64,000 nucleotides of DNA. It comes from an uncultured Chloroflexia bacterium. GTDB taxonomy: Bacteria; Chloroflexota; Anaerolineae; Anaerolineales; E44-bin32. Below, in pieces: positions 11,354 to 61,817 of this stretch; position 1 is the stretch's first letter; each line of letters starts with the position of its first letter. The translations under genes and the position numbers were made by a program. The notes beneath the pieces were generated by a model, which did not search any database, was not told the origin of the DNA, and worked only from the letters and a program-made list of their open reading frames with translations. Location: the NCBI GenBank assembly GCA_963789825.1, contig CAWBME010000006.1:78612-142611 (forward strand), given 5' to 3'.

Positions 11354-12443
11354 TCAGCCGCCAACGGCTGAGAGCCGCTGCACGAGGCCGAGCAGGCTGG
11401 CGTAGCCGCACGCCAGCGGCTGCAGATCGATGCTTTCCATCAGGGTGTGGGCATTGCTGCCGGTCGTGATCCCGACGCAGATCGCAGGGTAGCCCAGGCT
11501 CAGTGGGAGGCTGGCATCCGTCGACCCCCCGGTGAGCCGTGCCGTGCCGCCGCAGGCCTCGGAGTGGACGCGGAGAGCTGTCTGCACCAGCGGGTGATCA
11601 TCGGCGATCGCTCCGTGCGGGCGGATCCCGATGACCTTCGCCTCGACGTTCACCCGCTCTGGCCACGGCCCCTTCAGCAGCCCTTCCACGCCTGCGGCGA
11701 CCTCGGCCAGCTGTGCGCCATCTTCTGAGCGGATCTCCAACTCCATCCATGCCTGGCGGGCAATGGCGTTGATCCCGGTCCCGCCCGCAGAGCTGGCCGA
11801 TGTTCAGCGTGGTCTTGGGATCCGACGGCAATGGCAGGTCGAGCAGTTGGCCTCCGAGACGGAGCAGTAGGTTGACGGCCGAAGGCCTGCCGGCGTGGAT
11901 CCAGGCGTGCCCCCCTTGCGTCTCGACCTGGACTCGGTAGCGGCGGACTGGATAGGCCCGGGTGTAGATGTGGCCGAGGGACATGCCTTCGACGGCGATG
12001 TAGGCCGCGGGCGCAGCGCCGAATCGCTCAACGACGCGAGCCATGCCGCCCAGGTTACCCAGACCCTCCTCTCCCACCGTGCAGACCAGCCACACCGCCC
12101 GTTCTGGCTCAGGATGCATGAGATCCACGCCCAGCTCGACCAGCGCCGCCAGGCCCAAGGCATTGTCACCGACGCCGGGGCCTACCCAGCGCTCGCGGCC
12201 CTGGGTCAAGCGCAGGTCGGTGCCCGAGGGGAAGACCGTGTCCAAGTGGGCGACGAGCACAATGGGCGATGGCCCGCTTCCGCGCCGGCCGTAGACGTTG
12301 CCAATCGAGTCGATCTCGACATCACTGAGACCTGCCTGGCGGAAGAGCTCCTGCATGGCAGCCGCCCGCTCAGCCTCACCGAAGGTCGGCGAGGGGATCG
12401 ACTGGATTGCTGCGCATCGATCGAGCAGGCTGGAGGTGTCCAT
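11354..12443 (-). CDS. M20-family metallopeptidase/deacylase (apparent +1 frameshift near 11795)
   Basis: LVAHLDTVFP, GVGDNALG, TVGEEGLGNLGG, then GGTGINAIA..GGSTDAS in the +1 frame. Confidence 0.8.
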
Positions 12444-15687: not shown

Positions 15688-17010
15688 CTAGACGCCGCCG
15701 AAGTGCCGGCGAAGCACGTCCTCTAGCGTCGGTGTGCCGATCTCCTGAAGCTCGTAGCGAACCCGCTGGGCGGGCTTGTTGATCTTCATCAGTCGGCCCA
15801 AGTCGATCGGCGTTCCGATCAGGACCAGATCTGCGTCCGAGCGGTTGATCGTGTCCTGCAGTTCCGTGATCTGCTTCTTCCCATAGCCCATGGCGGGAAG
15901 AACCCGGCCGACGGTTGGGTACTTCTGGTATACCCCGGCGATGCTGCCGCGGGCAAAGGGCCGGGGGTCGATCACTTCCGCCGCGCCGAGGCGCTGGGCG
16001 GCGACCCATGCGGCGCCATAGCCCATCTCGCCATGGGTGACGGTAGGGCCATCCTCGATCACCAGCACTCGCTTGCCGCGCACCTGCTCAGGGTGATCGA
16101 CGAAGATCGGTGAAGCCGCTTCGATCACGATGGCGCCGGGGTTCACGGCGGCAATGTTCCTGCGTACCTGCAGCACCGCCTGAGCGTCGGCCGAGTCGAC
16201 CTTGTTGATCACCACCACATTGGCGGAGAACAGGTTCATCTCCCCGGGATGGTAGCTGCGTTCGTGCCCGGGCCGGTGGGGATCGGCGACTACGATCTGC
16301 AGGTCGCTCTTGAAGAACGGGAAGTCGTTGTTGCCGCCATCCCACAGGATGACGTCCACCTCAGCCTCTGCGGCGCGCAGGATGCGCTCATAGTCGACGC
16401 CGGCATACACCACCACGCCCAAGTCGAGGTGGGGCTCATACTCCTCGCGCTCCTCGATGGTGCAGTTGTGGGCGGCCAGATCCTTGTAGTTGGCGAAACG
16501 CTGAACGGCCTGAGCCGCCAGATCGCCGTACGGCATTGGGTGGCGCACGGCAGCGACGCGCAGGCCCATCGTGCGCAGGATCGTCGCCACGCGGCGGGTC
16601 GTCTGGCTCTTGCCGCTTCCGGTTCGCACGGCGCAGATCGAGATCACGGGCTTGCTGGAGGGGATCTGGGTCGAGGCAGCGCCCATCAATCGGAAGTCTG
16701 CCCCAGCCGACAGCACCTGGGACGCCCGATGCATGACGAATTCGTGCGAGACGTCGCTGTAGGCGAAGACCACCTGGTCGATCTGGTGCTGGCGGAGCAG
16801 CGCCACCAGCTCGCTTTCGGAATGGATCGGAATACCGCGCGGGTACAGCCGTCCGGCCAGGCTGGCGGGGTAGAGCCGTCCCTCGATGTTCGGGATCTGG
16901 GTGGCGGTGAAGGCCACCACCTCATACTCCTGCCGCTCGCGGAAGTACACGTTGAAGTTGTGGAAGTCCCGCCCGGCTGCACCCATGATGATCACGCGGG
17001 TCCGATTCAT
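15688..17010 (-). CDS. COG2403-family P-loop protein (cyclic 2,3-diphosphoglycerate synthetase-like)
   Basis: RVIIMGAAGRDFHNFNVYFR N-terminus and Walker A VRTGSGKSQTT, characteristic of this family. Confidence 0.7.
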   Translation of the reverse strand: MNRTRVIIMGAAGRDFHNFNVYFRERQEYEVVAFTATQIPNIEGRLYPASLAGRLYPRGIPIHSESELVALLRQHQIDQVVFAYSDVSHEFVMHRASQVLSAGADFRLMGAASTQIPSSKPVISICAVRTGSGKSQTTRRVATILRTMGLRVAAVRHPMPYGDLAAQAVQRFANYKDLAAHNCTIEEREEYEPHLDLGVVVYAGVDYERILRAAEAEVDVILWDGGNNDFPFFKSDLQIVVADPHRPGHERSYHPGEMNLFSANVVVINKVDSADAQAVLQVRRNIAAVNPGAIVIEAASPIFVDHPEQVRGKRVLVIEDGPTVTHGEMGYGAAWVAAQRLGAAEVIDPRPFARGSIAGVYQKYPTVGRVLPAMGYGKKQITELQDTINRSDADLVLIGTPIDLGRLMKINKPAQRVRYELQEIGTPTLEDVLRRHFGGV

Positions 17011-17090: not shown

Positions 17091-18894
17091 TCACATGCTC
17101 TCTGGCGCCTGGATGTCCAGCAGGCGCAGGCTGTTAGCGATGGTCTGGCGCGCGGCGGCGGTCAGGCGCAGCCGGGCGTCGATGGTCTCCGGCGTACCGG
17201 CCTGCAGCACCGGCACGGCGTGGTAGAAGGCATGGAAGGTACGCGCGAACTCATAGGCGTAGTTCGCCATGTGCAGCGGCTTGTAGTCCAACGCTGCCTG
17301 CTGCACCGCTGCTGGGAAGCGCGCCATCAGGTCGATCAGCTCGGTCTCGAGCGGTTCGAGGGGATGGGCGATGTCGGCGGTCAGCGGCATCCCGCCGGCT
17401 TTCTTCAGGATGCTGCAAGCCCGCACGTGGGCGTTCTGGATATAGGGGGCGGACTGCCCGTCGAAGCTCAGGGCGGTGTCCATGTCAAAGACGATGTCCC
17501 GGGTGTTGTCGACCGAGAGCATGGCGTAGGCCAGCGCTCCCAGCCCGACCTGGGTGGCGACCTGCTCGCGCTGGCCGGCGGGCAGGTGGGGGTTCTTCTC
17601 TTCGATCACCTCCAGCACGCGCCGGACGGCCTCGTCAGCCACATCCTTGAAGAAGACCACATTGCCCTTGCGGGAGGACATTGCCCCTGCTGGCAGGGAG
17701 ACGAAACCGAAGGCCAGGTGAAAGCACTTGGCGGCCTCGGGGAAGCCCCACAGTTCCAGGATCTTGAACACCTGCTGGAAGTGCAGGCTCTGCCGCACAT
17801 CGACGACATAGATCGAGCGATCGACGTGATAGTCCTCGAACTTGCGCTTGGCCAGGGCCAGGTCGTTGGTGAGGTAAAGCGTCGTGCCGTCGCTGCGCAG
17901 GATCACTGCCGTGCGGTACTTCTCCTTCTTGAGACCGAGCCGCTCGTCGATCTTGACGATCACCGGGCCGCCGGAAGGCCGCTCGTCCTCGGCGATCCCG
18001 AGGTGGATCAGCTCCTCGACGATCTGCTTGCCTTCGGCGGCGGCGTCACTCTCGAAGAAGAAGACGTCCATCTGGATGTCAAGCATGCGCAGGATGTCAT
18101 TCAATTCGTCCAGGCTCCACTGGCGGGTCTTCAACCAGAGCTGGCGCACCTCTGGGTCACCGACGTCCCAGCGGCGGTAGAGCTCGCGCCGCTCGGCGTC
18201 GTAGGCCTCGCGCTGCGCCCGTTCGGAGTCGGTCTCATCCTCTTTCAGCGATGAGGAGCTGGGTGGCCTCGGCGTAGATGTTGGCCAGCCAGCGCCCACG
18301 CTCGTGGATGCCGTCAGGTTCTTGCCCGGGATAGAAGCGCTGATAGGCCCACATGCAGGTGATCACGCCCAGCCCCATGTCGCCCGGGTAGGAGGCGCGG
18401 ATCGTCTCGAAGCCGGCAAACTGGACCAAGCGGGCGAGCGATTCGCCGAGCAGCGCCGCACGGGCGTGGCCGATGTGGATCGAATGATGGGTGTTCGGCT
18501 GGAAGTACTCGACCATCACCCGTTCGCCCTTGGGCTCACCACGACCGAACTCGTCAGCCTCGCCGAGCACCTGGTCGACCACGCGCCGGGCGAAGACCGC
18601 CGGATCGAGGTAGACATTGATGTAGGCCTTCTCGGCGGCGATGCGGGCCATCCCCGGGGGCAGATGGACGTCGACCACCGCCACCCGGGCGAGCTCCTCG
18701 GCGCGGCGCCCGACCTCGCCCTTGGCGTGGCGCGCTTCGGCCGCTGCAGCCTGAAAGCAGGTTGCTGTGCCGAAGCCCCATTGCCCGGCAAACGGGATGG
18801 GGATCCACTGGATCCGGTCGGGTGGGACGGAGCCATGCCGGCGAAGGGTCGCTCGAAGCTGCTCGCCGATCTGGTCGAGTTCGGTTTCGAACAT
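17091..18894 (-). CDS. argS: arginine--tRNA ligase (apparent +1 frameshift near 18255)
   Basis: N-terminal ORF carries the class I HIGH motif (NTHHSIHIGHARAALLG); C-terminal ORF carries TLYLTNDLA, MSSRKG (KMSKS-like) and the anticodon-binding DALR domain. Confidence 0.88.
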
Positions 18895-27195: not shown

Positions 27196-28600
27196 ATGCG
27201 CCAGCGATGGACGAGCATGCTGGGACACCTGCGGTCATGGCCGGCCGCCACCGGCATGCTCGCGGCTGCCCTGGGCCTGCTGCTGCTCCTGGGTGCGATG
27301 CAACGCCCATTCACCCTGGTTATCGATGGTGAGCCTCGCACGGCGTGGTCGCACGCCCGCACGGTCGCCGGCGTCGTGCGCAGCGCGGGCATCCGGCTGC
27401 AACTCGAGGACGAGACACTTCCCCACCGCGACGCACGCCTCGAGCCCGGCGACACGATCGTGCTCAGCCGGGCCCATCCGGTGGAGATCCACGCCAAACG
27501 TGGGTCGCAGATCATTGCCAGCCCCAGCCGGATCCCGGCGAATCTCCTGGCCTCAGCAGGGGTAAGCCCTGCTGCCAGGCGATCAGGTCTGGGTGGACGG
27601 ACTGAGGGTCATCGATCCGACTCAGCCTGTCGACTCCCGTGTCAGCCGCGTCCGGCACGTGGCCGCAGTCCCGATTGACTTGCGTCTCGATGGTGTACCG
27701 AGCGGAGCCAACACCGCGGCCGGTTCCCTTGCGCAGGTGCTCGAGGAGACGGGCGGGCGTTGGTACCAGGCCGACGACTTCGATGGGGATCCTTCGGGGA
27801 TCCTTCCGCCCGAAATCGACATCCGGCGCTCGCTTCCCATCACGGTCGAAAGCGATGGCGTTCGGCGGATCCTGCGTGCCATTGGCCCCACAGTCGCAGA
27901 TGCACTGCATCAGGCAGGCGTCGCGCTGCAGGGCCTCGACGTTGCCTCGCCTGCGGCCGAAGATCCGATCCCGCGCGACGGGGGGATCCAGGTCGTACGC
28001 GTACGAGATGAAGTGCTGATCGAGCAGGAGCCCATCCCGTACGAGACCGATTTCGAACCCGATCCCGAGGGACTGATCGACACCCAGACCATCCTTGATG
28101 CGGGCACCTTCGGAATCAAAGCCAATCGTGTGCGGGTCCGCAAAGAGGATGGAGTGGAAGTCGCTCGGCAGGTCGAGGGACAATGGGTCGCGCGCGAACC
28201 GCAGGCGCGAGTGCTTGGGTACGGCACGAAGATCGAGATCAAGACCATCGACACGGAGTACGGACCGCTGCAGTACTACCGTGCGGTTCCAATGTATGCC
28301 ACTTCGTATTCGCCCTGCCGCCTGGGCATCCCCCAGTGCGACAACGTCACGGCCAGCGGGGCGATCCTGAAGAAGGGGATCGCCGCGGTCCTGGTGCGCT
28401 GGTACCGCAACATGGTGGGCAGCCAGGTGTACGTCCCCGGCTACGGCATCGCCACGATTGCCGACACCGGCGGCGGGATCCCGGGCCGCTACTGGATCGA
28501 CCTGGGCTACGAGGATCACGACTACCAGTCGTGGCACGACTGGGTGACGGTGTACTTCCTGGCGCCGGTGCCAGCGAACCCGATGTGGGTGCTCAATTGA
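27196..28600 (+). CDS. YabE-like cell-wall protein (DUF348 repeats, G5, 3D/RlpA-like domain; apparent +1 frameshift near 27565)
   Basis: N-terminal TM, repeated DGEPRT/DGVRR-type DUF348 units, G5-like EQEPIPYETDF..G..RVRKEDG, C-terminal YATSYSPC..TASG...VPGYGIATIADTGG 3D domain. Confidence 0.75.
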
Positions 28601-28612
28601 CCCACAGGGCAG

Positions 28613-36481: not shown

Positions 36482-37744
36482 CTACGGTTGTCCGGGGAGG
36501 ATTGTCACGCGCTCGATGACCAGCGGTGCGGGAAGGAGCAGGTCGGCCAGCGGATCGCGCGCCGGGAGCTGCTGCAGAAGCTCAAGACCTGAGACCACCC
36601 TTCCAAAGATGGTACGGGTCCCATCGAGCTCTGGCAGAGGTTGAAGGTTGATGAAGAAGTTCGCTCCGTTGGAGTCCGGGCCTTCACTTCGCAGCGCGAC
36701 CCTGCCAGCCTCTGCGAACGACAGCTCGCCGTCGAACTCGTCGGCAAAGCGGTAGGCAGGTCCTGCCAGGCCGGTGTGGGTCGGATCTCCAGTTTCGGCC
36801 ACAGCTCCAGGCACGACGCGGTGGAAGATCGTTCCGTCGTACCAGCCCTGTCGAGCCAAGTAGATGAAGCTGCCCACCGCCTGAGGGGCGGCCGCCAAGT
36901 CCAGCTCGATCTCGATCGGGCCAAGGGTGGTTTCCAGCACCGCACGGTAGACCTGCGCCGGATCAGCCGGAGCGGGTGGACCTTGAGGCAGGCCCTGCGC
37001 CTCGGCCCGCATCAGGCGCAACAAGGCCTCTAGGTTGGTCAGGCTGGGCTGCATGGCGACGAGCTTCTGGTTCAGGAAGACCGTCGGCACACCGGTCAAG
37101 CCAGAGGCGAAAGCGGTTTCGAAATCGCGCAGGGCCTCATCGGTGTAGGTCCCCGCCTCCATAGCCTGGTCGAAGGCCTGAGGCTCGAGCGGCAGGGTGC
37201 GTGCCGCCTGGCCGAGCCACTGCCGGAATTCCTCCGGGCTGAGGTCGACCCATTCGGCGAACGCGCCGAAGAGAAGGTCATGCATCGCCCAGAACTGGCC
37301 CTGTGCACCGGCGGCCTCGGCGGCCTGGGCTGCGATCAGTGCCTTGTCGTGGACTGGCCAGAGCGGATAGGGACGGAAGACGACCTGCAGGTCCTGCGGG
37401 TGGATCGCCTGCAGTTCAGCCAGCACGCCGGCCAGCCGGTGGCAGGCGGGGCACTGGAAGTCGGAGTACACCAGCAAGGTGAAATCGGCGTTGTCCGGCC
37501 CGCGGCGCCAATCCTCCGCGTTGGTAGGGGGAATCGGCGCGGCGGTCGGAGCCGGCGGAAGGAGGGTGGGAGCTGGCGCAGTCGGTGGGAGCGTGGATGT
37601 CGGCCCCAGTCTGGCAGGCTCGACGGATGGGCTGACGCTGGGTGCCGTCGCCGGCGCGCAGGCGCACAGCAAGACCACAAGTGCTGCCAGACCCGTAAGT
37701 CGGCTGACTGAGCCGAAGGGCGAAGCCCTGGACATTCCGAGCAT
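36482..37744 (-). CDS. lipoprotein fusing a DsbA/thioredoxin-like oxidoreductase to a cyclophilin-type peptidyl-prolyl isomerase
   Basis: Signal LAALVVLLCAC; YSDFQCPACH thiol-disulfide motif; C-terminal GPIEIELD...WYDGTIFHRVV..GD..G.G....F.DEF........G.VA......PDSNGANFFI cyclophilin; start moved to ATG 37744 because the longer ORF overlaps tRNA-Sec. Confidence 0.8.
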   Translation of the reverse strand: MLGMSRASPFGSVSRLTGLAALVVLLCACAPATAPSVSPSVEPARLGPTSTLPPTAPAPTLLPPAPTAAPIPPTNAEDWRRGPDNADFTLLVYSDFQCPACHRLAGVLAELQAIHPQDLQVVFRPYPLWPVHDKALIAAQAAEAAGAQGQFWAMHDLLFGAFAEWVDLSPEEFRQWLGQAARTLPLEPQAFDQAMEAGTYTDEALRDFETAFASGLTGVPTVFLNQKLVAMQPSLTNLEALLRLMRAEAQGLPQGPPAPADPAQVYRAVLETTLGPIEIELDLAAAPQAVGSFIYLARQGWYDGTIFHRVVPGAVAETGDPTHTGLAGPAYRFADEFDGELSFAEAGRVALRSEGPDSNGANFFINLQPLPELDGTRTIFGRVVSGLELLQQLPARDPLADLLLPAPLVIERVTILPGQP

Positions 37745-37874
37745 GGGGTACAAGCAGCGTTCTCCAGCCGGCTCCACGTTGATCGTTGAGCAGGATCCAT
37801 TGTAGCCGGATCTCGTGGCCCGAGACCGTGATCCTTGCCAGGCGTAGGTCTGCGCGGTATCCTTGCCCGCGTTC

Positions 37875-37968
37875 GGGGGTGGTTGGGTCCCGGTGGGCTC
37901 CCCGGTCTTCAAAACCGGCGGCGGGTCGCACAGCGGGCCGCGGTGGGTTCAACTCCCATCCATCCCCG
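37875..37968 (+). tRNA. selC: tRNA-Sec (selenocysteine, anticodon UCA)
   Basis: Hand-folded 8/5 structure: 8-bp acceptor GGGGGTGG/CCATCCCC, 6-bp D stem GGGTCC/GGGCTC with 4-nt loop CGGT, anticodon arm CCGGT-CTTCAAA-ACCGG, 8-bp variable arm with one mismatch, T arm GTGGG-TTCAACT-CCCAT, discriminator G. Confidence 0.8.
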
Positions 37969-37995
37969 CCTTTTCGTTCTCTGGAGAGAAACCGC

Positions 37996-39186
37996 GTGAG
38001 CGAAGTCCGCCCGGCATTGCCTGATGACCTGGTTGCACGACTTCTTCCTGTCGTGCAGCAGGGGATGCGCATCCATGACTCTACTGCCGGGTCGGGCAAA
38101 GGCGGATTCCTGGCGCGCTTCCGCGGCGACCTGATCCTTCCACCCGAGGAGGCGTACACCCGGATGTCAGGCGCCTTTGAGGCGCAGGGCGTGCAGCTTC
38201 TGACGCGCAACGAAGGCGGCCGCCCAGCGATCTTCGCGGTGGAGGCCCTCCCGGCCGTCAAGCGTTCGAACCCGTGGATCAACCTTGGCTTGTTCTCGCT
38301 GACCGTGTTCAGCATGTTGCTGGCCGGCGCGCTGTATGGCTACAGCGGGCCGCCGAACTTCGCCGGCGTTCTGCGGGCCTTGCCCTCTGGGATCCCGTTC
38401 GCGGCCAGCCTGCTGGCGATCCTGCTGGCGCACGAGTTCGGCCACTATCTGGCAGCCCAGGCTCACCGGTCTCCGGTTTCTCTTCCGTACTTCCTGCCGT
38501 TCCCAGGGAGCGCCTTCGGCACACTTGGGGCGTTCATTCGGCTCAAGCGTCCGCCGCGCAATCGCAATGTGCTTCTGGACATCGGCCTTGCCGGGCCGCT
38601 TGCGGGATTGGTGGTGGCGATCCCGGTGTTGCTCTACGGGCTTTCGGTCTCGGAGGTCGGGCCGCTGCCGGCCGACCCGGCGGCGCTCGGTGGGCTGGAG
38701 GGGAACTCGCTGCTCTATCTGGCGGCCAAGTGGGTGGTCACCGGCGCCTGGCTCCCGACGCCTCTGACCTATGGTGGGCTGCCCGCCGTGCTGTACTGGC
38801 TGCGCTACATCGCCGTCGGCCAGCCGCTGCCGCTGGGTGGAACCGACGTCTTCCTCAGCCCGATCGCCTGGGCGGGTTGGGCGGGGCTGCTCGTCACGGC
38901 GCTGAACCTGATTCCGGCGGGACAGCTGGACGGTGGACACCTGGTGTACGTGCTGCTGGGGGAGCGTGCCATCCGCCTGTGGCCCATCGCCGTGGGAGTG
39001 ACCTTGCTGCTCGGCCTGGTGTGGCCGGGATGGTTCCTGTGGGCGGCGATGCTCTTCTTCCTCGGGCGGGTCTACGCCACTCCGCTCGACGATCTGACCC
39101 CGCTCACTCCAGCGCGCAAGGCGCTGGCGATCTTTGGGATCGTGCTCTTCTTCCTGCTGCTCACCCCGGTTCCCCTGCGCGCCTAG
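37996..39186 (+). CDS. M50-family site-2 protease (membrane metalloprotease)
   Basis: HEFGH zinc motif in a TM helix (LLAHEFGHYLAAQ), second motif GQLDGGH, multiple TM helices; GTG start with GGAGAG SD. Confidence 0.85.
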   Translation: MSEVRPALPDDLVARLLPVVQQGMRIHDSTAGSGKGGFLARFRGDLILPPEEAYTRMSGAFEAQGVQLLTRNEGGRPAIFAVEALPAVKRSNPWINLGLFSLTVFSMLLAGALYGYSGPPNFAGVLRALPSGIPFAASLLAILLAHEFGHYLAAQAHRSPVSLPYFLPFPGSAFGTLGAFIRLKRPPRNRNVLLDIGLAGPLAGLVVAIPVLLYGLSVSEVGPLPADPAALGGLEGNSLLYLAAKWVVTGAWLPTPLTYGGLPAVLYWLRYIAVGQPLPLGGTDVFLSPIAWAGWAGLLVTALNLIPAGQLDGGHLVYVLLGERAIRLWPIAVGVTLLLGLVWPGWFLWAAMLFFLGRVYATPLDDLTPLTPARKALAIFGIVLFFLLLTPVPLRA

Positions 39187-40639: not shown

Positions 40640-41119
40640 TTAGCCCGAAGCCTCGGCTCCGAGCAGGTCGGCCAAGATCTGGGCGCTGTGCCCTTCCGGC
40701 TTGACGTTCTCATAGATGCGCAGCAAACGACCGTCGGGGCCGATCAGGAAAGTGGTCCGCAGCACGCCTTCGTAGTTGCGCCCCATGAAGGTCTTCGGCC
40801 CCCAGACGCCGTACGCCGAGGCCACGGCATGCCCCTCGTCGGCCAGCAGGGGGAAGGGCAGAGAAAACTTATCGCGGAACTTGGCATGCGAGGCCACGCT
40901 ATCAGGAGAGATGCCGAGCACCTGCACCGCGTTCTGCCGATAGTCGGCGTATGCGTCGCGAAAGCCGCAGGCTTGGGTGGTGCAGCCTGGCGTATCGTCC
41001 TTGGGGTAGAAGTACAGCACGACCGGACGCCCGCGCAGGTCCGCAAGGCGGATCTCGTTGCCGTGATCGTCGTGCAGGGCGAAGTCGGGGGCCGGATCCC
41101 CGACGCGCGGCAGGCTCAT
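40640..41119 (-). CDS. bcp: thioredoxin-dependent peroxiredoxin (Bcp type)
   Basis: GDPAPDFAL..VVLYFYPKDDTPGCTTQACGFRD. Confidence 0.92.
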   Translation of the reverse strand: MSLPRVGDPAPDFALHDDHGNEIRLADLRGRPVVLYFYPKDDTPGCTTQACGFRDAYADYRQNAVQVLGISPDSVASHAKFRDKFSLPFPLLADEGHAVASAYGVWGPKTFMGRNYEGVLRTTFLIGPDGRLLRIYENVKPEGHSAQILADLLGAEASG

Positions 41120-46173: not shown

Positions 46174-48106
46174 CTAAGGGCCCACCACCTGGAGGACTTG
46201 CCCGATCTCAGGCAGCGCATACCCGGGCAGCGCCAGGATGGCGCGGTGCAAGTCGGCATCGGCCAGCACGTCAAGCACGGGCTGGAATACCGGGCTGCGG
46301 AAATGCTCCTCCGGCACGACGAGGTCATAACGCTCCTCGAGCGAGCGGGAGGAAATCCAGCCCATACTGCGCAGCGGCGGCTTCGATGCCCATGCCGCAG
46401 TCGACCTGGCCGGCAGCGACGGCGGCCGCGGCCGTCAGGTGGGTGTAGGTCTCTTGCGTGTAGCCACGAACGGATGCCGAGGCGATGCCCTCTTGCGCCA
46501 GTAGATGGTCGAGCAGCACGCGTGTCCCGGCGCCCCGCTGGCGATTGACAAACGCTACGTCAGCGCGCGTCAGGTCGCCGAGACCGCGGATGCCCTTGGG
46601 GTTGCCGGAGGCGACCAGCAGGCCCTGCGTGCGCCGGATGAAACCCAACAAGACGACCTTGCGCCCGGGCAGGTAGCGCCGCACGAAGGGAAGGTTGTAC
46701 TCCCCGGTTTGCGGGTCAAGCAGGTGACATCCGCCGAAATGCGCCTCACCCCTTGACAGCGCGATCAGTCCCCCCAGGCTTCCCACGTTGGCCGAGGTCA
46801 GCCGGCGACCGCGCGCCGGCAGCCGTTCGGCAATCAGATCCAGCGTCAAGTCGTGGGAACCCAGGGCGACGATGGTGCGCTCGACCCAGGACGGATCGAG
46901 GTACAGCCGGACCTCCACCCGGTCGCCGGCGTCGAGCCCCTGAGTGCCAGCCGGGATCAGGACGATCCCATCCGCCCGCACGAGAGAAGTGATCACGCCG
47001 GCGCCGCGTGAGAGCGGCGCGGCCACGACCCGCTCGCCGACCCGGCCAACTGCCACCCGCAGGTACTCGTCGTCGCCGGCCGAAGAATGTACTTTGCGCG
47101 TCAGCGTCGCCGACAGCCGAGGCGGGTCCGGCGGGATGACGCCAAGCCAGCGCGCCAGCAGCGGCTCGACGAAGATTTCCCCGGTGAGCGCCGCCGAGAC
47201 CGGGAAGCCCGGTACGCCGATCACCGGCACGCGCCGGGCTTGCGCATCGATCATCCCCAGGATGACGGGGTGACCGGGCCTCACGGCGACTCCATGCACC
47301 AGCATCCGTCCGATCGACTCCACCACCTCAGCCGTGAAGTCTTCGGAACCGGCCGACGAACCAGCGTTGACCAGTACCAGGTCATGGTCGAGGCTGGCCT
47401 GCAGCACGGCCTGACGTAACGCAGCGCGTTCGTCCCGCACGATGGGCAGGCGCGTCGCCACGCCTCCCCAGGCCTCGACCTGCGCTGCAAGCACCAGGCT
47501 GTTCGATTCGATGATCTCGCCTGGGCGCGGCGCCTGGTCAATCGGCACCAGTTCGTCTCCCGTCGGCAGAACTGCCACTCGAGGCCGGCGCCATACCCGA
47601 AGCGAGGTCGTCCCGCTGGCGGCCAGGGCGCCGAGGTCGACTGGCCGCACGCGGTGACCGGAGGGAAGGACCAGGTCCCCGGCGGCGATGTCCTCGGCCA
47701 CCGGACGCAGGTTCGTCCACGGGGGGATCGGCGCGCGCAGGCGGATGTGCTCGGGAAGAACCTCGACGACCTCGATCGGCGCTACTCCGTCCGCCCAGAG
47801 CGGCAGCGGATCGCCGGTGTCCACGTAAATCGCCTCATGCTCCAAGCCGAGCTCGACGGGGGCCCGGTCGCTTGCCTGCTGTGTGGCTGCCGTGCGAATG
47901 GCGTAGCCATCCATGGCGGCCGACGTCGCGGCCGGTGACGAAAGGCGCGCCCACACCGGCTCGGCCGTCACGCGGCTCAGAGCGCGATCGAGGGGAACGG
48001 ACTCGGCCTCGAGCGGGCCCCACAAGCCAGCCTGCTCGAGCGCCTCCTGAAAGCGATTGCGCGCCGCAGGCAGGGCGACGTCATGCAAGTACATCCCGCG
48101 GTTCAT
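46174..48106 (-). CDS. moeA: MoeA-type molybdopterin molybdenumtransferase fused to a C-terminal PBP-like domain (apparent +1 frameshift near 46350)
   Basis: AMDGYA, LPTGDELV, NAGSSAGSEDF, PGFPVSA; C-terminal ~230 aa periplasmic-binding-protein-like (GSHDLTLD...FVNRQRGAGTR...), with its last ~60 aa in the +1 frame. Confidence 0.8.
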
Positions 48107-49383
48107 CCGTCGCTCCCGATGGGCGCCGGCCAGGCCAGTCCACCGGGAAACAAGTGGACCTGCACCGGTGCGCCGGCTCGCAGACCCGTCACCTCCGGCG
48201 GTATGCGCAGGAAGCCGTCGGCGCGTATCAGCGTGAAGATCAGGTTGGAGCGCCCGTGCACCGGCACCGCCTGCATCCCGTTCGAAACGGGCTCGAGCGC
48301 CACCGGGACAAAGTCCTCCCGGCCGGCCTCCGAAGGTACGTTCTCGCTCAACCTGGCTGGCACGGCGGGCGCGATCATCGACCGCTTGACGCCGAGCATC
48401 GCCTGGATCATCGGAACCGCCAGGCAGTGCGCCACGATCAATGCGCTGACGGGGTTTCCCGGCAGCCCCAGCACGGGGACTTGGCCGGCGACGGCCAGGA
48501 TCGTCGGCTTGCCCGGCTTGACACGCAGTCCGTGCACCAGCAGGCCTGGAGGGCCGAGGCGGCGGATGACCTCGGCCGTTGCGTCACGCGTGCTCACCGA
48601 TGAGCCGGCCGTGACGATCACCAGCTCATTCTCGGCCACTGCCTGCCGCATCGCTTCCTCGAGCCGGTCGGGATCGTCGGGCACGATGCCGTAGCTTGTC
48701 GCCTGGCCCCCGGCCAGCTCGATCAGCGCGCGGAGCGTGCCTTCGTTGACGTCCCGCACCTGGCCCGGCGCAGGCTCCTGCACGGCGGGGACGACCTCAT
48801 CGCCGGAGGACAGAAGCCCGACTCGCACACGCCCGCGGCACTTGACGCGCTCGATACCGAGCGCCATCAGCCCGCCGATCTCTTGCGGCCTGAGCGGCGA
48901 GCCTGCCCGAAGCGCGACCTCTCCTCGACGGACGTCCTCGCCCTGCTGCAGGACGTTGGCTCCGACTTGCACCGGACGCAACACTTCGATCTCCGCCTCA
49001 CCCACCGGCTGGGTGTCTTCGAGCATCACCACCGCATCCGCCCGTGCGGGCAGCATGCCGCCGGTGTGGATCAGCGCCGCCGATCCAGGCTGCAGATCGA
49101 GTACAGCGGCAACCCCCATCGCGATCTCGCCCGACAGGTGCAAGTAGGCGGGCAGGCTGGCGCTGGCGCCGAAGGTGTCGGCGGCGATCACGGCATAACC
49201 ATCGACGGTCGAACGACGGAAGGGTGGAAGGTCGCCGGTGGCGCGGACATCATCGGCAAGGATCCGCCCAAGTGCTGCCTGAGTCGGGATCTCTTCGGGC
49301 TCGGCGCGCGGCAATGGCTGCGTCGCCTCGAGCCAGATTCGAAGTGCCTGGGAGAGATAGGCCAGCTGCAGAAACTCAGGCAT
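48103..49383 (-). CDS. moeA: MoeA-type molybdopterin molybdenumtransferase (second paralog)
   Basis: STVDGYAV, LSSGDEVVP, TAGSSVSTRDA, LPGNPVSA; ATGA overlap with the downstream MoeA-PBP gene; start ATG 49383. Confidence 0.85.
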   Translation of the reverse strand: MPEFLQLAYLSQALRIWLEATQPLPRAEPEEIPTQAALGRILADDVRATGDLPPFRRSTVDGYAVIAADTFGASASLPAYLHLSGEIAMGVAAVLDLQPGSAALIHTGGMLPARADAVVMLEDTQPVGEAEIEVLRPVQVGANVLQQGEDVRRGEVALRAGSPLRPQEIGGLMALGIERVKCRGRVRVGLLSSGDEVVPAVQEPAPGQVRDVNEGTLRALIELAGGQATSYGIVPDDPDRLEEAMRQAVAENELVIVTAGSSVSTRDATAEVIRRLGPPGLLVHGLRVKPGKPTILAVAGQVPVLGLPGNPVSALIVAHCLAVPMIQAMLGVKRSMIAPAVPARLSENVPSEAGREDFVPVALEPVSNGMQAVPVHGRSNLIFTLIRADGFLRIPPEVTGLRAGAPVQVHLFPGGLAWPAPIGSDG

Positions 49384-59234: not shown

Positions 59235-59950
59235 TCCCGGCCCGGCGCTCAGGCCGTCGGCGGATCCCGCAAGCGTCGACGGCGGTTATCGGCTCGACGA
59301 GTGAAGGGAGGCTCGCTCCCCAGCCGCGGTCCCTTGTGGCCCAGGCACAGAGCCTCGGCCGCCGGGCCATCCCGTAGGGGAGCCACCCCGGTCGGTGAAG
59401 ACCAGGCTCCCGCAGAAGCGGGCGACCGAATGGCCTCTGGACGCCATCCTGGTCAAGGGCTCCCCCTTGCTCCCACCGAACACCCCTCGTCATCCAATGC
59501 GCCATTTGTGGCAGCTCCCCTCGCGTGGTACCGCCATATGTAGGCATTCATGCAGGAATCGGGGCTTCCCATCGCAGGGGTAGGCAACTCGCGGTATACT
59601 CAGTCAGGCTTTCGCCGGCAGCCACCCAGGCAACCGCCCGGCGGCTCCTCCGGGGGCAGTGGGGGCGCCAGCGGGGTTCGGGGCTGCTTCAAGAGCACGC
59701 CAGCGGTCTGTCGATCGTCCCTTGCCAACGGTAGCAGTACCGAGCTCTTCCTCTCGGCATGTCCTCCCAACGTGGAGGAGCGGGATGCAAGAGGGACGGA
59801 CGAGTCGTGGACTCCTGGGCGGGACTCGGACTGAGCCGGAGACGGCTGTGTCCCGCCTCGCAGCCTGAGTCTCCCACAGCACCGACCCTGCTTGGGGCAG
59901 TGGCCGGCCCAGGGGATCCTGCACGGCAAGAGAGCCTTCGGAGTGTGGGT

Positions 59951-61817
59951 ATGGATCCAATTCTTGTCAAAGAGGAACGCCACGGCTGGCCCAGCCAGCC
60001 GCTGCCCAAGCCCCGCAGGGCTCTGCCCGACCCGTGGTCGGTGGAGCTCTTGCTGGGCGTCTTGCATGTACGCCACCACGCCCTTTCCCCCGATGGCACG
60101 CGGCTGGCCTTCATCTGGGACCGCGAGGGCAACAGCGATCTATGGGTGATGCCGGCGCGTGCGTCCGGTTGGCCGGAACGCCTGACTTTCGACCGCCCGG
60201 CGATCGCCCCCTGGAGCGACATCGCGCCGCGCTGGAGCCCCGACGGCAAGTACCTGGCCTACGTTTCCCGCGACGAGATCTGGATCGTGCCGGCCGAGGG
60301 CGGGCGCGCCCGCAAGCTGACCGACCACGGCCACGAGAGCACCGATCCCATCTTCAGCCCTGACAGCCAGCGGATCTACTACATCAGCAAGCGCGGAACC
60401 TATGGCAACCTGGCCGCAACCACCCCGGCGGGCGACTGGCCGGTTGCCCTCACCCGGTTTGATGGCGATGTCAGCGATCCCAGGCCCTCCCCGGATGGTC
60501 GGCGGATCGCGTTCGTCTATCACCCGCCGTCGGACCTGAACCGGTCCGAGATCTGCCTGGTGCCCGCCGTCGGTGGAGAAGTGCGCCACCTGACCGGCCA
60601 GCCCGGCGTGTGGGACGTCCGGCCGCGCTGGGCGCCGGACGGCAGCCGACTGGCCTTCGTCTCGAACCGCAGCGGCTACCGCGAGCTCTATCTGCTCGAT
60701 CCCGAATCCGGCGAGAGCCTGCAACTGACCGCCGGCATGGCGGATATCCAGGCGTACGACTGGAGCCCGGACGGCACCCGGTTGGTGCATGTCGCCGACC
60801 ACAATGGCGCCGGCGACCTGCATCGGGTGACGCTTGCCACGCGCGAGGATCGGCGGTTGCGCGGGGATTCCGGCTGGCACTCGCTTCCACAGTGGTCGGC
60901 TGACGGCAAGGCCGTCTTCGTCGGCTTCGAGAGCCCGCTGGATGCGCCGGACTTGTGGAAGGTGGACGCCGAGAGCGGCGAGGCCGAGCGCCTGACCTGG
61001 TCGATGCCACCGGCGCTCGGCAAAGCCTCGCTGCGCGCGCCGCAGTTCATCCGCTATCCGAGCACCCGCGCGGCAACCATCCCGGCCTTCCTGTACCGCC
61101 CATCCGCCGCCTCCGCCGAGCGGCCGTGCCCGGCGATCGTCTATCCCCATGGCGGACCGACCTCCGAGTACGTGCTGGACTGGGACTTGATGGCGCAGTG
61201 GCTGGTCGCCAAGGGCTATGCCGTGCTGGCGCCCAACTACCGCGGCAGCACCGGCTATGGCCTCGATCACCAACATGCACTGCACGACCAGTGGGGCATC
61301 GTCGATACGGAGGACATGCTGGCGGCGGCCGACTACTCTGCGGGGCTTGGATTGGGTCGACGGGGACCGGCTGGGCATCCTGGGATTCTCCTATGGGTCG
61401 TACCTGGCGCTGCTCGCTCTGGCGCGCGATCCCGATCCCAAGCCTCGCTTCAAGTGCGGCGTGTGTATCTTCGGCGACTGCGACATCCTGACCTCCTGGG
61501 CTCAAGGGGACCGCGTCGGCCGCGAAGACCTCGAACGACAGATGGCCGATCCCTCGCAGAACCGGGCAGGCTACCTCGCCGGCTCGCCGGTGTACGATGT
61601 CGAGAACATCCGCTATCCGCTGCTGATCTTCCATGGCGACGAGGACAAGCGCGTCAACCCACTGCAAAGCGAACAGCTGACGGAAGCCTTGAAGCGCCAT
61701 GGAAAGACCTATGAGTACTTCGTCTATGGCGGCGAGGGCCACGGCTTTCTGCAGGACGCCAGCCAGCTACACTTCCATGCCACCGTCCAGCGTTTCCTGG
61801 ACTGGTACTTGATGTGA
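59951..61817 (+). CDS. S9-family prolyl oligopeptidase/dipeptidyl peptidase with N-terminal beta-propeller (apparent +1 frameshift near 61337)
   Basis: PD40-type repeats (SPDG.RLAF), then GDRLGILGFSYGSYLAL (GxSxG), FHGDEDKRV, GEGHGF in the +1 frame. Confidence 0.85.

Follow-up and report, generated by a model that had tools for sequence, protein, structure and literature searches.

The roles of SerRS, of SelA together with SelD, and of SelB in the bacterial selenocysteine (Sec) pathway are established, and the combination of a 6-bp D stem and a 4-nt D loop is the element of tRNA-Sec recognized by SelA in the SelA-tRNA-Sec complex. In E. coli K-12, the map positions are 3.836 Mb for the tRNA-Sec gene selC, 3.758 Mb for selAB and 1.847 Mb for selD. 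E. coli selC is also an insertion site for genomic islands, and another locus of this species, thrU-tyrU-glyT-thrT-tufB, is a tRNA-mRNA operon. Several tRNAs that resemble tRNA-Sec have been described as well: allo-tRNAs and selC* carry 8/4 or 9/3 acceptor/T helices, selC* tRNA-Cys having a U73 discriminator and CysRS identity, and (8/4) variants of tRNA-Sec occur in Actinobacteria and Chloroflexi (PMC5389517). The rule for serine identity, a long extra arm plus G73, is quoted in the same work (PMC5389517). For the Anaerolineales, single-cell genomes with Sec-type formate dehydrogenases and SelB have been reported, and Anaerolinea thermophila UNI-1 has SelB (PMC4959059). Among prokaryotic selenoproteins, DsbA (UxxC) and Prx (TxxU) are established families (PMC2398784).

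The tRNA-Sec gene studied here lies in 64 kb of DNA from an uncultured bacterium of the Anaerolineales (Chloroflexota); this whole stretch is called the window below. Three tRNA genes were called in the window by ARAGORN, and one of them is a tRNA-SeC with anticodon tca at 37875-37970 on the plus strand. The Rfam tRNA-Sec model RF01852 matched positions 37875-37967 over its entire length (1-91 of 91), with a score of 70.7 bits vs. a gathering score of 47 and an E-value of 1.9e-12. On the basis of ARAGORN, Rfam and covariation, the gene was delimited as 37875..37968 (+), that is 94 nt. The first-pass annotation of this DNA, made from the letters alone, had folded the same 94 nt by hand into the bacterial 8/5 tRNA-Sec architecture. 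All the structural details that it gave hold on the sequence, ARAGORN named the locus a tRNA-SeC(tca), and the covariance model RF01852 accepted the fold above its threshold.

All elements of the cloverleaf are on the plus strand. The acceptor stem pairs 37875-37882 with 37960-37967 (GGGGGUGG/CCAUCCCC, 8 bp, one G-U), and a UU connector, read off the sequence, joins it to the D arm at 37885-37900 (GGGUCC-CGGU-GGGCUC). This arm has a 6-bp stem and a 4-nt loop, and the SelA recognition element is thus present. The anticodon arm at 37902-37918 (CCGGU-CUUCAAA-ACCGG) presents a 7-nt loop with TCA at 37909-37911. It is followed by the extra arm at 37921-37941 (GCGGGUCGC-ACA-GCGGGCCGC), with 9 stacked positions including a central G-G mismatch, and by the T arm at 37943-37959 (GUGGG-UUCAACU-CCCAU, 5 bp). 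The window tRNA-Sec therefore has the 13-bp acceptor/T helix in the 8/5 arrangement. The discriminator is a G at 37968 (G73); CC follows at 37969-37970 and then a T, the terminal A of CCA not being encoded. The long extra arm and G73, which are the serine-identity features, are both present, and G73 was also found in the window's own tRNA-Ser(GGA). The free energy of the cloverleaf was -48.7 kcal/mol vs. -53.6 kcal/mol for the unconstrained minimum free energy (MFE) structure, which is not a cloverleaf and whose z of -3.3 is uninformative for a tRNA. As the MFE fold is not the cloverleaf, the fold is supported by covariance models and covariation, not by thermodynamics.

The alignment of tRNA-Sec orthologues comprised 66 sequences, 53 of them distinct. 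Mean column identity was 94%, whereas the flanking protein is just 47-62% identical. In the 8/5 cloverleaf, 96.6% of the alignment cells pair, vs. 48-53% after a shift of the 3' partners by 1-3 columns. Double-sided changes were observed in 15 of the 33 pairs; shuffling gave 3.4 ± 1.2, and none of the 500 shuffles matched the observed value on any measure. The acceptor stem was 99.1% paired across the orthologues, with 3 pairs changed on both sides, and the D stem 100% paired, with compensatory changes in 4 of its 6 pairs. Compensatory changes were also present at 6 of the 9 stacked positions of the extra arm, which in one relative (L070) has a wholly different sequence and the same stem. The T stem was 100% paired, its opening G-U pair included, and invariant or nearly so. 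The 5-bp T stem and G73 were invariant in the 53 distinct orthologues, and in the anticodon loop C33-A38 was invariant in 66 of 66 sequences, the seventh position being A in at least 90%. With a covariance model built from the 66 orthologues, the window tRNA (73% GC) scored 108.6 bits. The compensatory changes found across the order indicate that selC is under selection and unlikely to be a relic. The Anaerolineales selC described here is thus genuine, intact and under selection, but ordinary.

The central G-G mismatch of the extra arm (37925/37937 in the window, columns 51/63 of the alignment) was kept in 49 of the 53 distinct sequences. Judging from this alignment, it may be a structural or recognition feature specific to the lineage.

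Pfam scans agree with the first-pass annotation on the flanking genes, which had been read as a foldase lipoprotein and an M50 protease. The divergent neighbour at 36482..37744 (-) encodes a lipoprotein in which a DsbA-like thioredoxin domain (C-P-A-C) is fused to a cyclophilin prolyl isomerase. On the other side, at 37996..39186 (+), a gene with a GTG start encodes a Peptidase_M50 protein, a site-2-protease-like membrane metalloprotease with an HEFGH motif. The tRNA is separated from the M50 start by a spacer of 25 nt (37971..37995, +), with a T-rich 5' end and a ribosome binding site (RBS), GGAGAG, at 37983-37988. The possibility that selC serves here as an insertion site for a genomic island was rejected, as no integrase domain was found in the Pfam scans of the window and the M50 gene comes directly after the tRNA. 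Further genes of the window encode a glyoxalase, a DedA/VTT protein, a Bcp-type peroxiredoxin with T-P-G-C (40640..41119, -; mentioned as context, outside the tRNA unit), a lysine-2,3-aminomutase and two MoeA paralogues. The latter are adjacent at 46325-49383 (-), and the first is fused to a C-terminal PBP-like solute-binding domain. MoeA is a molybdopterin molybdenumtransferase, and the two paralogues point to molybdo- or tungsto-enzymes in the organism. Among bacterial selenoproteins the most frequent is formate dehydrogenase, but the tie is only circumstantial. A well-scoring gene of 440 aa at 15688-17010 (-) (MNRTRVIIMGAAGRDFHNF...) had no Pfam match at E ≤ 0.001.

In GTDB contigs representing one genome per species, all the relatives of the M50 protein belonged to Anaerolineales, Anaerolineae or Chloroflexota MAGs, with 59-62% as the highest identity. 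This indicates that the window comes from an Anaerolineales species without representation in that genome collection. The sole close relative, with 95% identity in M50, was found among metagenome contigs (L084, Ga0209254_10085498, 2670 nt); this contig begins inside the M50 gene, and the position of the tRNA is outside it. A tRNA-SeC(tca) on the same strand and directly 5' of the M50 gene was called by ARAGORN in 65 of the 80 genome loci. This number rises to 68 of 80 once the covariance model adds three, located at a contig end (L076), at an N run (L009) and at an NN gap (L013). Among the 80 metagenome loci, selC was found upstream of M50 in 60, 3 of these being cut by contig ends, and ten of the metagenome loci without selC have less than 150 nt of upstream sequence. 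Complete relatives include OY969772.1 and CP070785.1, which carry selC at the same place, and OY969938.1, from which it is missing. The selC-M50 pair is kept in about 85% of the informative loci. The other neighbours of the window are seldom syntenic: of the 80 loci, 9 have the DsbA-like/cyclophilin gene and 5 have Bcp, and none of the remaining neighbours occurs in more than 8. Since they are shuffled, selC followed by M50 is a specifically retained pair. No description of a selC-M50 linkage was found in a literature search.

Four M50 loci without selC (L027, L029, L048, L064) share a tRNA-Thr/Tyr/Thr cluster about 5 kb upstream. A tRNA-Trp is also present in L027 and L029, and a tuf-like gene stands beside the cluster in L027, L029 and L048. 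These four loci probably represent a single clade, with loss or relocation of selC.

A sigma-70-type promoter-like site, TTGCCA-17 nt-TATCCT, was found at 37835..37863 (+), ending 11 nt before the 5' end of the tRNA; this is 1 site upstream of the tRNA vs. 0.0 expected in shuffles. Most relatives present a TTGnnA-17-TAT(C/G/A)(C/A)T site 6-28 nt 5' of the tRNA, often within GCGGTATCCT or GGTATAAT. A match of at least 8 of 12 was obtained in 53 of 64 loci, whereas about 7% of 60-mers drawn at random from these loci reach it. No terminator was predicted in the spacer ahead of M50, and the distance from the 3' end of the tRNA to the first possible M50 start, with a median of 45 nt in the relatives, is 25 nt in the window. 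This spacing and the lack of a predicted terminator, which are our sole basis for co-transcription, suggest that M50 is probably co-transcribed with the tRNA. In the simplest reading, the promoter of the tRNA would drive a joint tRNA-mRNA transcript that includes M50, and tRNA-processing nucleases would excise the tRNA from it. We also considered that selC and M50 could form a conserved co-transcribed unit across the Anaerolineales, by which expression of the protease would be tied to both transcription and processing of the tRNA-Sec; this proposal is tentative and, in our opinion, rather doubtful. If it were true, either a simple shared promoter or a regulatory coupling would be possible, the latter for example by partial termination at the T-rich trailer or by cleavage-dependent mRNA stability.

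The genes of the window were called with a codon-usage model and then scanned against Pfam, and no SelA, SelB or SelD domain was detected among those called in the 64 kb. Also, tblastn of the E. coli SelA, SelB and SelD proteins vs. the window gave no matches. No TGA of the window has a coding signal in the same frame on both sides, except the one at 28598 (+). This TGA was rejected as a Sec codon, being the stop of a G5/DUF348 gene. A gene for a polysaccharide-biosynthesis membrane protein starts in the same frame 12 nt after it (28598-28612), and together the two genes mimic a read-through ORF of about 660 codons. The earlier observation that the 64 kb contain neither selA, selB or selD nor a gene with an in-frame TGA was thus confirmed by Pfam, tblastn and the TGA scan. 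When 160 related selC or M50 loci were searched by tblastn with the E. coli queries, selA, selB or selD was found within 10 kb in none of them, and the only SelB matches were cross-hits to EF-Tu (tuf). The absence of these genes near the window selC is therefore uninformative. It is usual in this lineage, and in bacteria such as E. coli, for selC to stand at a distance from selA, selB and selD.

TGA ends 31 of the 55 predicted genes of the window and is the commonest stop, which indicates that UGA is an ordinary stop here and that the tRNA cannot be a general UGA reader. By way of its long extra arm and G73, the tRNA would be charged with serine by SerRS. SelA, which reads the 6-bp D stem and the 4-nt D loop, would then convert Ser to Sec with selenophosphate made by SelD, and SelB, not EF-Tu, would read the 13-bp acceptor/T helix and deliver the product to a UGA followed by a SECIS hairpin. 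The genes for SelA, SelB, SelD and the selenoproteins would lie elsewhere in the genome. We infer that the organism of the window most likely uses Sec, with both machinery and targets encoded elsewhere.

A Sec/Cys homology scan, which by design selects for TGAs aligned with Cys, was applied to the window and to 80 loci (1.28 Mb). The first scan was swamped by conserved off-frame and antisense ORFs of the GC-rich DNA. Filtering vs. better-scoring overlapping frames left 12 candidates, two of which are credible, in the loci L002 and L046. The ten others, in which the in-frame TGA corresponded to gene boundaries or to upstream non-coding sequence, were discarded. Both L002 and L046 carry the same selC.

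The gene in L002 (7674-8690, -, TGA at 8625-8627) is an ortholog of the DsbA-like/cyclophilin gene of the window, with 51% identity. It reads F-Q-[TGA]-P-F-C vs. F-Q-C-P-A-C in the window, so that the TGA stands at the first Cys of the CxxC motif, with 118 conserved codons before it and 320 after. From this alignment, the L002 gene, which adjoins selC, is a candidate for a Sec-containing DsbA-cyclophilin fusion. Other orthologues present CPYC, CAYC, CQPC, CDLC, CAPC, SPPC, ALGC or AAQS at this site. Since some of them have Ser or Ala in place of the first DsbA Cys, the TGA of L002 could be a nonsense mutation. Among close relatives, the residue at the catalytic position of this lipoprotein seems to alternate between Cys, Sec and Ser/Ala. 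The second gene, in L046 (about 6211-6951, +, TGA at 6343-6345), encodes an AhpC/TSA peroxiredoxin fused to a glutaredoxin, with the TGA at the peroxidatic Cys: T-P-I-[TGA]-T vs. T-P-G-C-T in the window Bcp and in four others. The window Bcp is 37% identical to this fusion. The L046 gene, a selenoprotein candidate, is located about 3.4 kb upstream of its selC. The hairpins following the TGA were no more stable than shuffles (z of -0.1 for L002 and -0.2 for L046). As far as can be judged from the reading frames, the TGA genes of L002 and L046 support the use of Sec in this clade, for which the SelB and Sec-type formate dehydrogenases published for other Anaerolineales (PMC4959059) are independent evidence.

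Alternative readings of the locus have to be weighed with these data. The window selC could be an orphan, selA, selB, selD and the selenoproteins having been lost and the tRNA gene being a leftover or kept for another reason; a relic was also one of the alternatives named by the first-pass annotation. Such a reading would account for a window without sel or selenoprotein genes, and bacteria have lost the Sec trait repeatedly (PMC1794560). In addition, selC is missing ahead of M50 in about 11 of the 80 related loci, and one locus has a decayed copy. This copy, at L019:9844-9939 (DUEG01000004.1, Anaerolineae bacterium G519), is a tRNA-Sec remnant at the syntenic position upstream of M50 that scores only 25 bits end to end, with 44% GC, a broken anticodon stem and a loop that is now CUUUAAA; a recent loss of the Sec trait is probable in this lineage. 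Besides L019, eleven genome loci gave no selC match at the syntenic position, and together with this relic they indicate that loss of selC does happen within the order. However, all helices and identity positions of the window copy are intact, this copy scores 108.6 bits vs. 25 for the real relic, it keeps a promoter of the conserved type, and its helices changed by compensation among the relatives. The absence of sel genes, for its part, says nothing when 0 of 160 related loci have them nearby. A relic is thus not supported, and we regard it as improbable. That the organism keeps selC without selA, selB and selD is also less likely than the selC-M50 unit discussed above.

The first-pass annotation had likewise mentioned the tRNA-Sec-like families. 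In that case the gene would be a look-alike, namely an allo-tRNA, a selC* tRNA-Cys or a general opal suppressor, inserting Ser or Cys at UGA without the Sec machinery. Such tRNAs have been found in metagenomes, and 8/4 variants of tRNA-Sec were reported from Chloroflexi (PMC5389517). However, the window tRNA combines the 8/5 arrangement with G73, both invariant in the 53 distinct orthologues, and free suppression would be harmful where TGA ends 31 of 55 genes. Because its T stem has 5 bp, not 4 or 3, it does not belong to the allo-tRNAs, and with G73 instead of U73 and 8/5 instead of 8/4 it is not a selC* tRNA-Cys either. This alternative was therefore not supported, and it seems highly improbable. 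Finally, the fold could have arisen by chance in GC-rich DNA, or the region could be an upstream extension of the M50 frame. An ORF at 37786-39186 does overlap the tRNA, the window (67% GC) is full of spurious ORFs, and the unconstrained MFE structure is not a cloverleaf. Against this stand the Rfam E-value of 1.9e-12, tRNA columns 94% identical vs. 47-62% for the flanking protein, the compensatory nature of the helix changes, and, for the M50 frame, an RBS and a GTG start downstream of the tRNA. The Rfam match, the conservation and the covariation refute this explanation, to which we give practically no chance. The reading that we prefer is that the feature is a functional and canonical selC of an Anaerolineales bacterium, with sel genes and targets elsewhere in the genome, and we consider it very probable.

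Several genes of the window are split over two frames, at 17091-18894 (-), 4593-5776 (+), 59759-61817 (+) and possibly 11354-12440 (-). For the ArgRS catalytic domain, one ORF matches positions 3-70 of the profile and a second ORF positions 108-348. DinB has its IMS and IMS_C domains in separate frames, and an S9 peptidase is divided likewise, with 6-56 of the profile in one frame and 59-210 in the other. The sequence quality of the window is therefore imperfect. A frameshift in the essential ArgRS suggests indel errors of the assembly rather than real pseudogenes. Whether indel errors or pseudogenes, these split genes leave the tRNA call unaffected. The GC content of the window is 65-70% throughout.

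Taken alone, the window selC is one more orthologue and of little importance. The conserved selC-M50 pair and the variation at the catalytic site of the DsbA-like/cyclophilin protein are the only points that are new, and only mildly so. Nevertheless, about 125 tRNA-Sec sequences of Anaerolineales now document the features of the lineage, which are the 8/5 fold, the G-G mismatch of the extra arm and the invariant T stem. Also, the adjacency of selC and M50 can be used as a synteny marker to find selC and to score the loss of the Sec trait in MAGs of Anaerolineae. The DsbA-like/cyclophilin neighbour, as it appears, offers a small natural example of Sec/Cys exchange.

Compared with E. coli selC (b3658), the window gene has the same 8-bp acceptor stem, 5-bp T stem with a G-U on top, 6-bp D stem, D loop CGGU, anticodon loop CUUCAAA, long extra arm and G73, and the E. 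coli gene is likewise distant from selAB and selD. The primary sequences of the helices differ, and the T loop is UUCAACU in the window vs. UUCGACU in E. coli selC and in most relatives. Unlike the tRNA-Sec of E. coli and of RF01852, that of the Anaerolineales has the central G-G mismatch of its extra arm in 49 of the 53 sequences, and the window gene has its CCA end only partly encoded (GCC, then T) and is found directly upstream of an M50 protease gene. The thrU-tyrU-glyT-thrT-tufB operon is similar in that a tRNA gene that has a promoter of its own precedes a protein gene of the same orientation, with a short spacer and no terminator in between. However, the window associates a tRNA-Sec with a membrane protease, and co-transcription is here deduced from the gene arrangement. 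We know of no link between the M50 membrane protease and translation. Among the related loci, L027, L029 and L048 themselves have their tRNA-Thr/Tyr/Thr cluster beside a tuf-like gene.

The (8/4) tRNA-Sec variants, the allo-tRNAs and selC* share with the window tRNA a long extra arm, an 8-bp acceptor stem and, in some of them, the UCA anticodon, and they were reported from metagenomes of Chloroflexi (PMC5389517). They have a T stem of 4 or 3 bp and a 12-bp helix, whereas the window tRNA has 5 bp and 13 bp. In other bacteria, selC can be nested in, or adjoin, selB or selAB (for example PMC8124441). The neighbour in the window differs in not being a sel gene, but the situation is alike in that selC has a fixed neighbour specific to the lineage.
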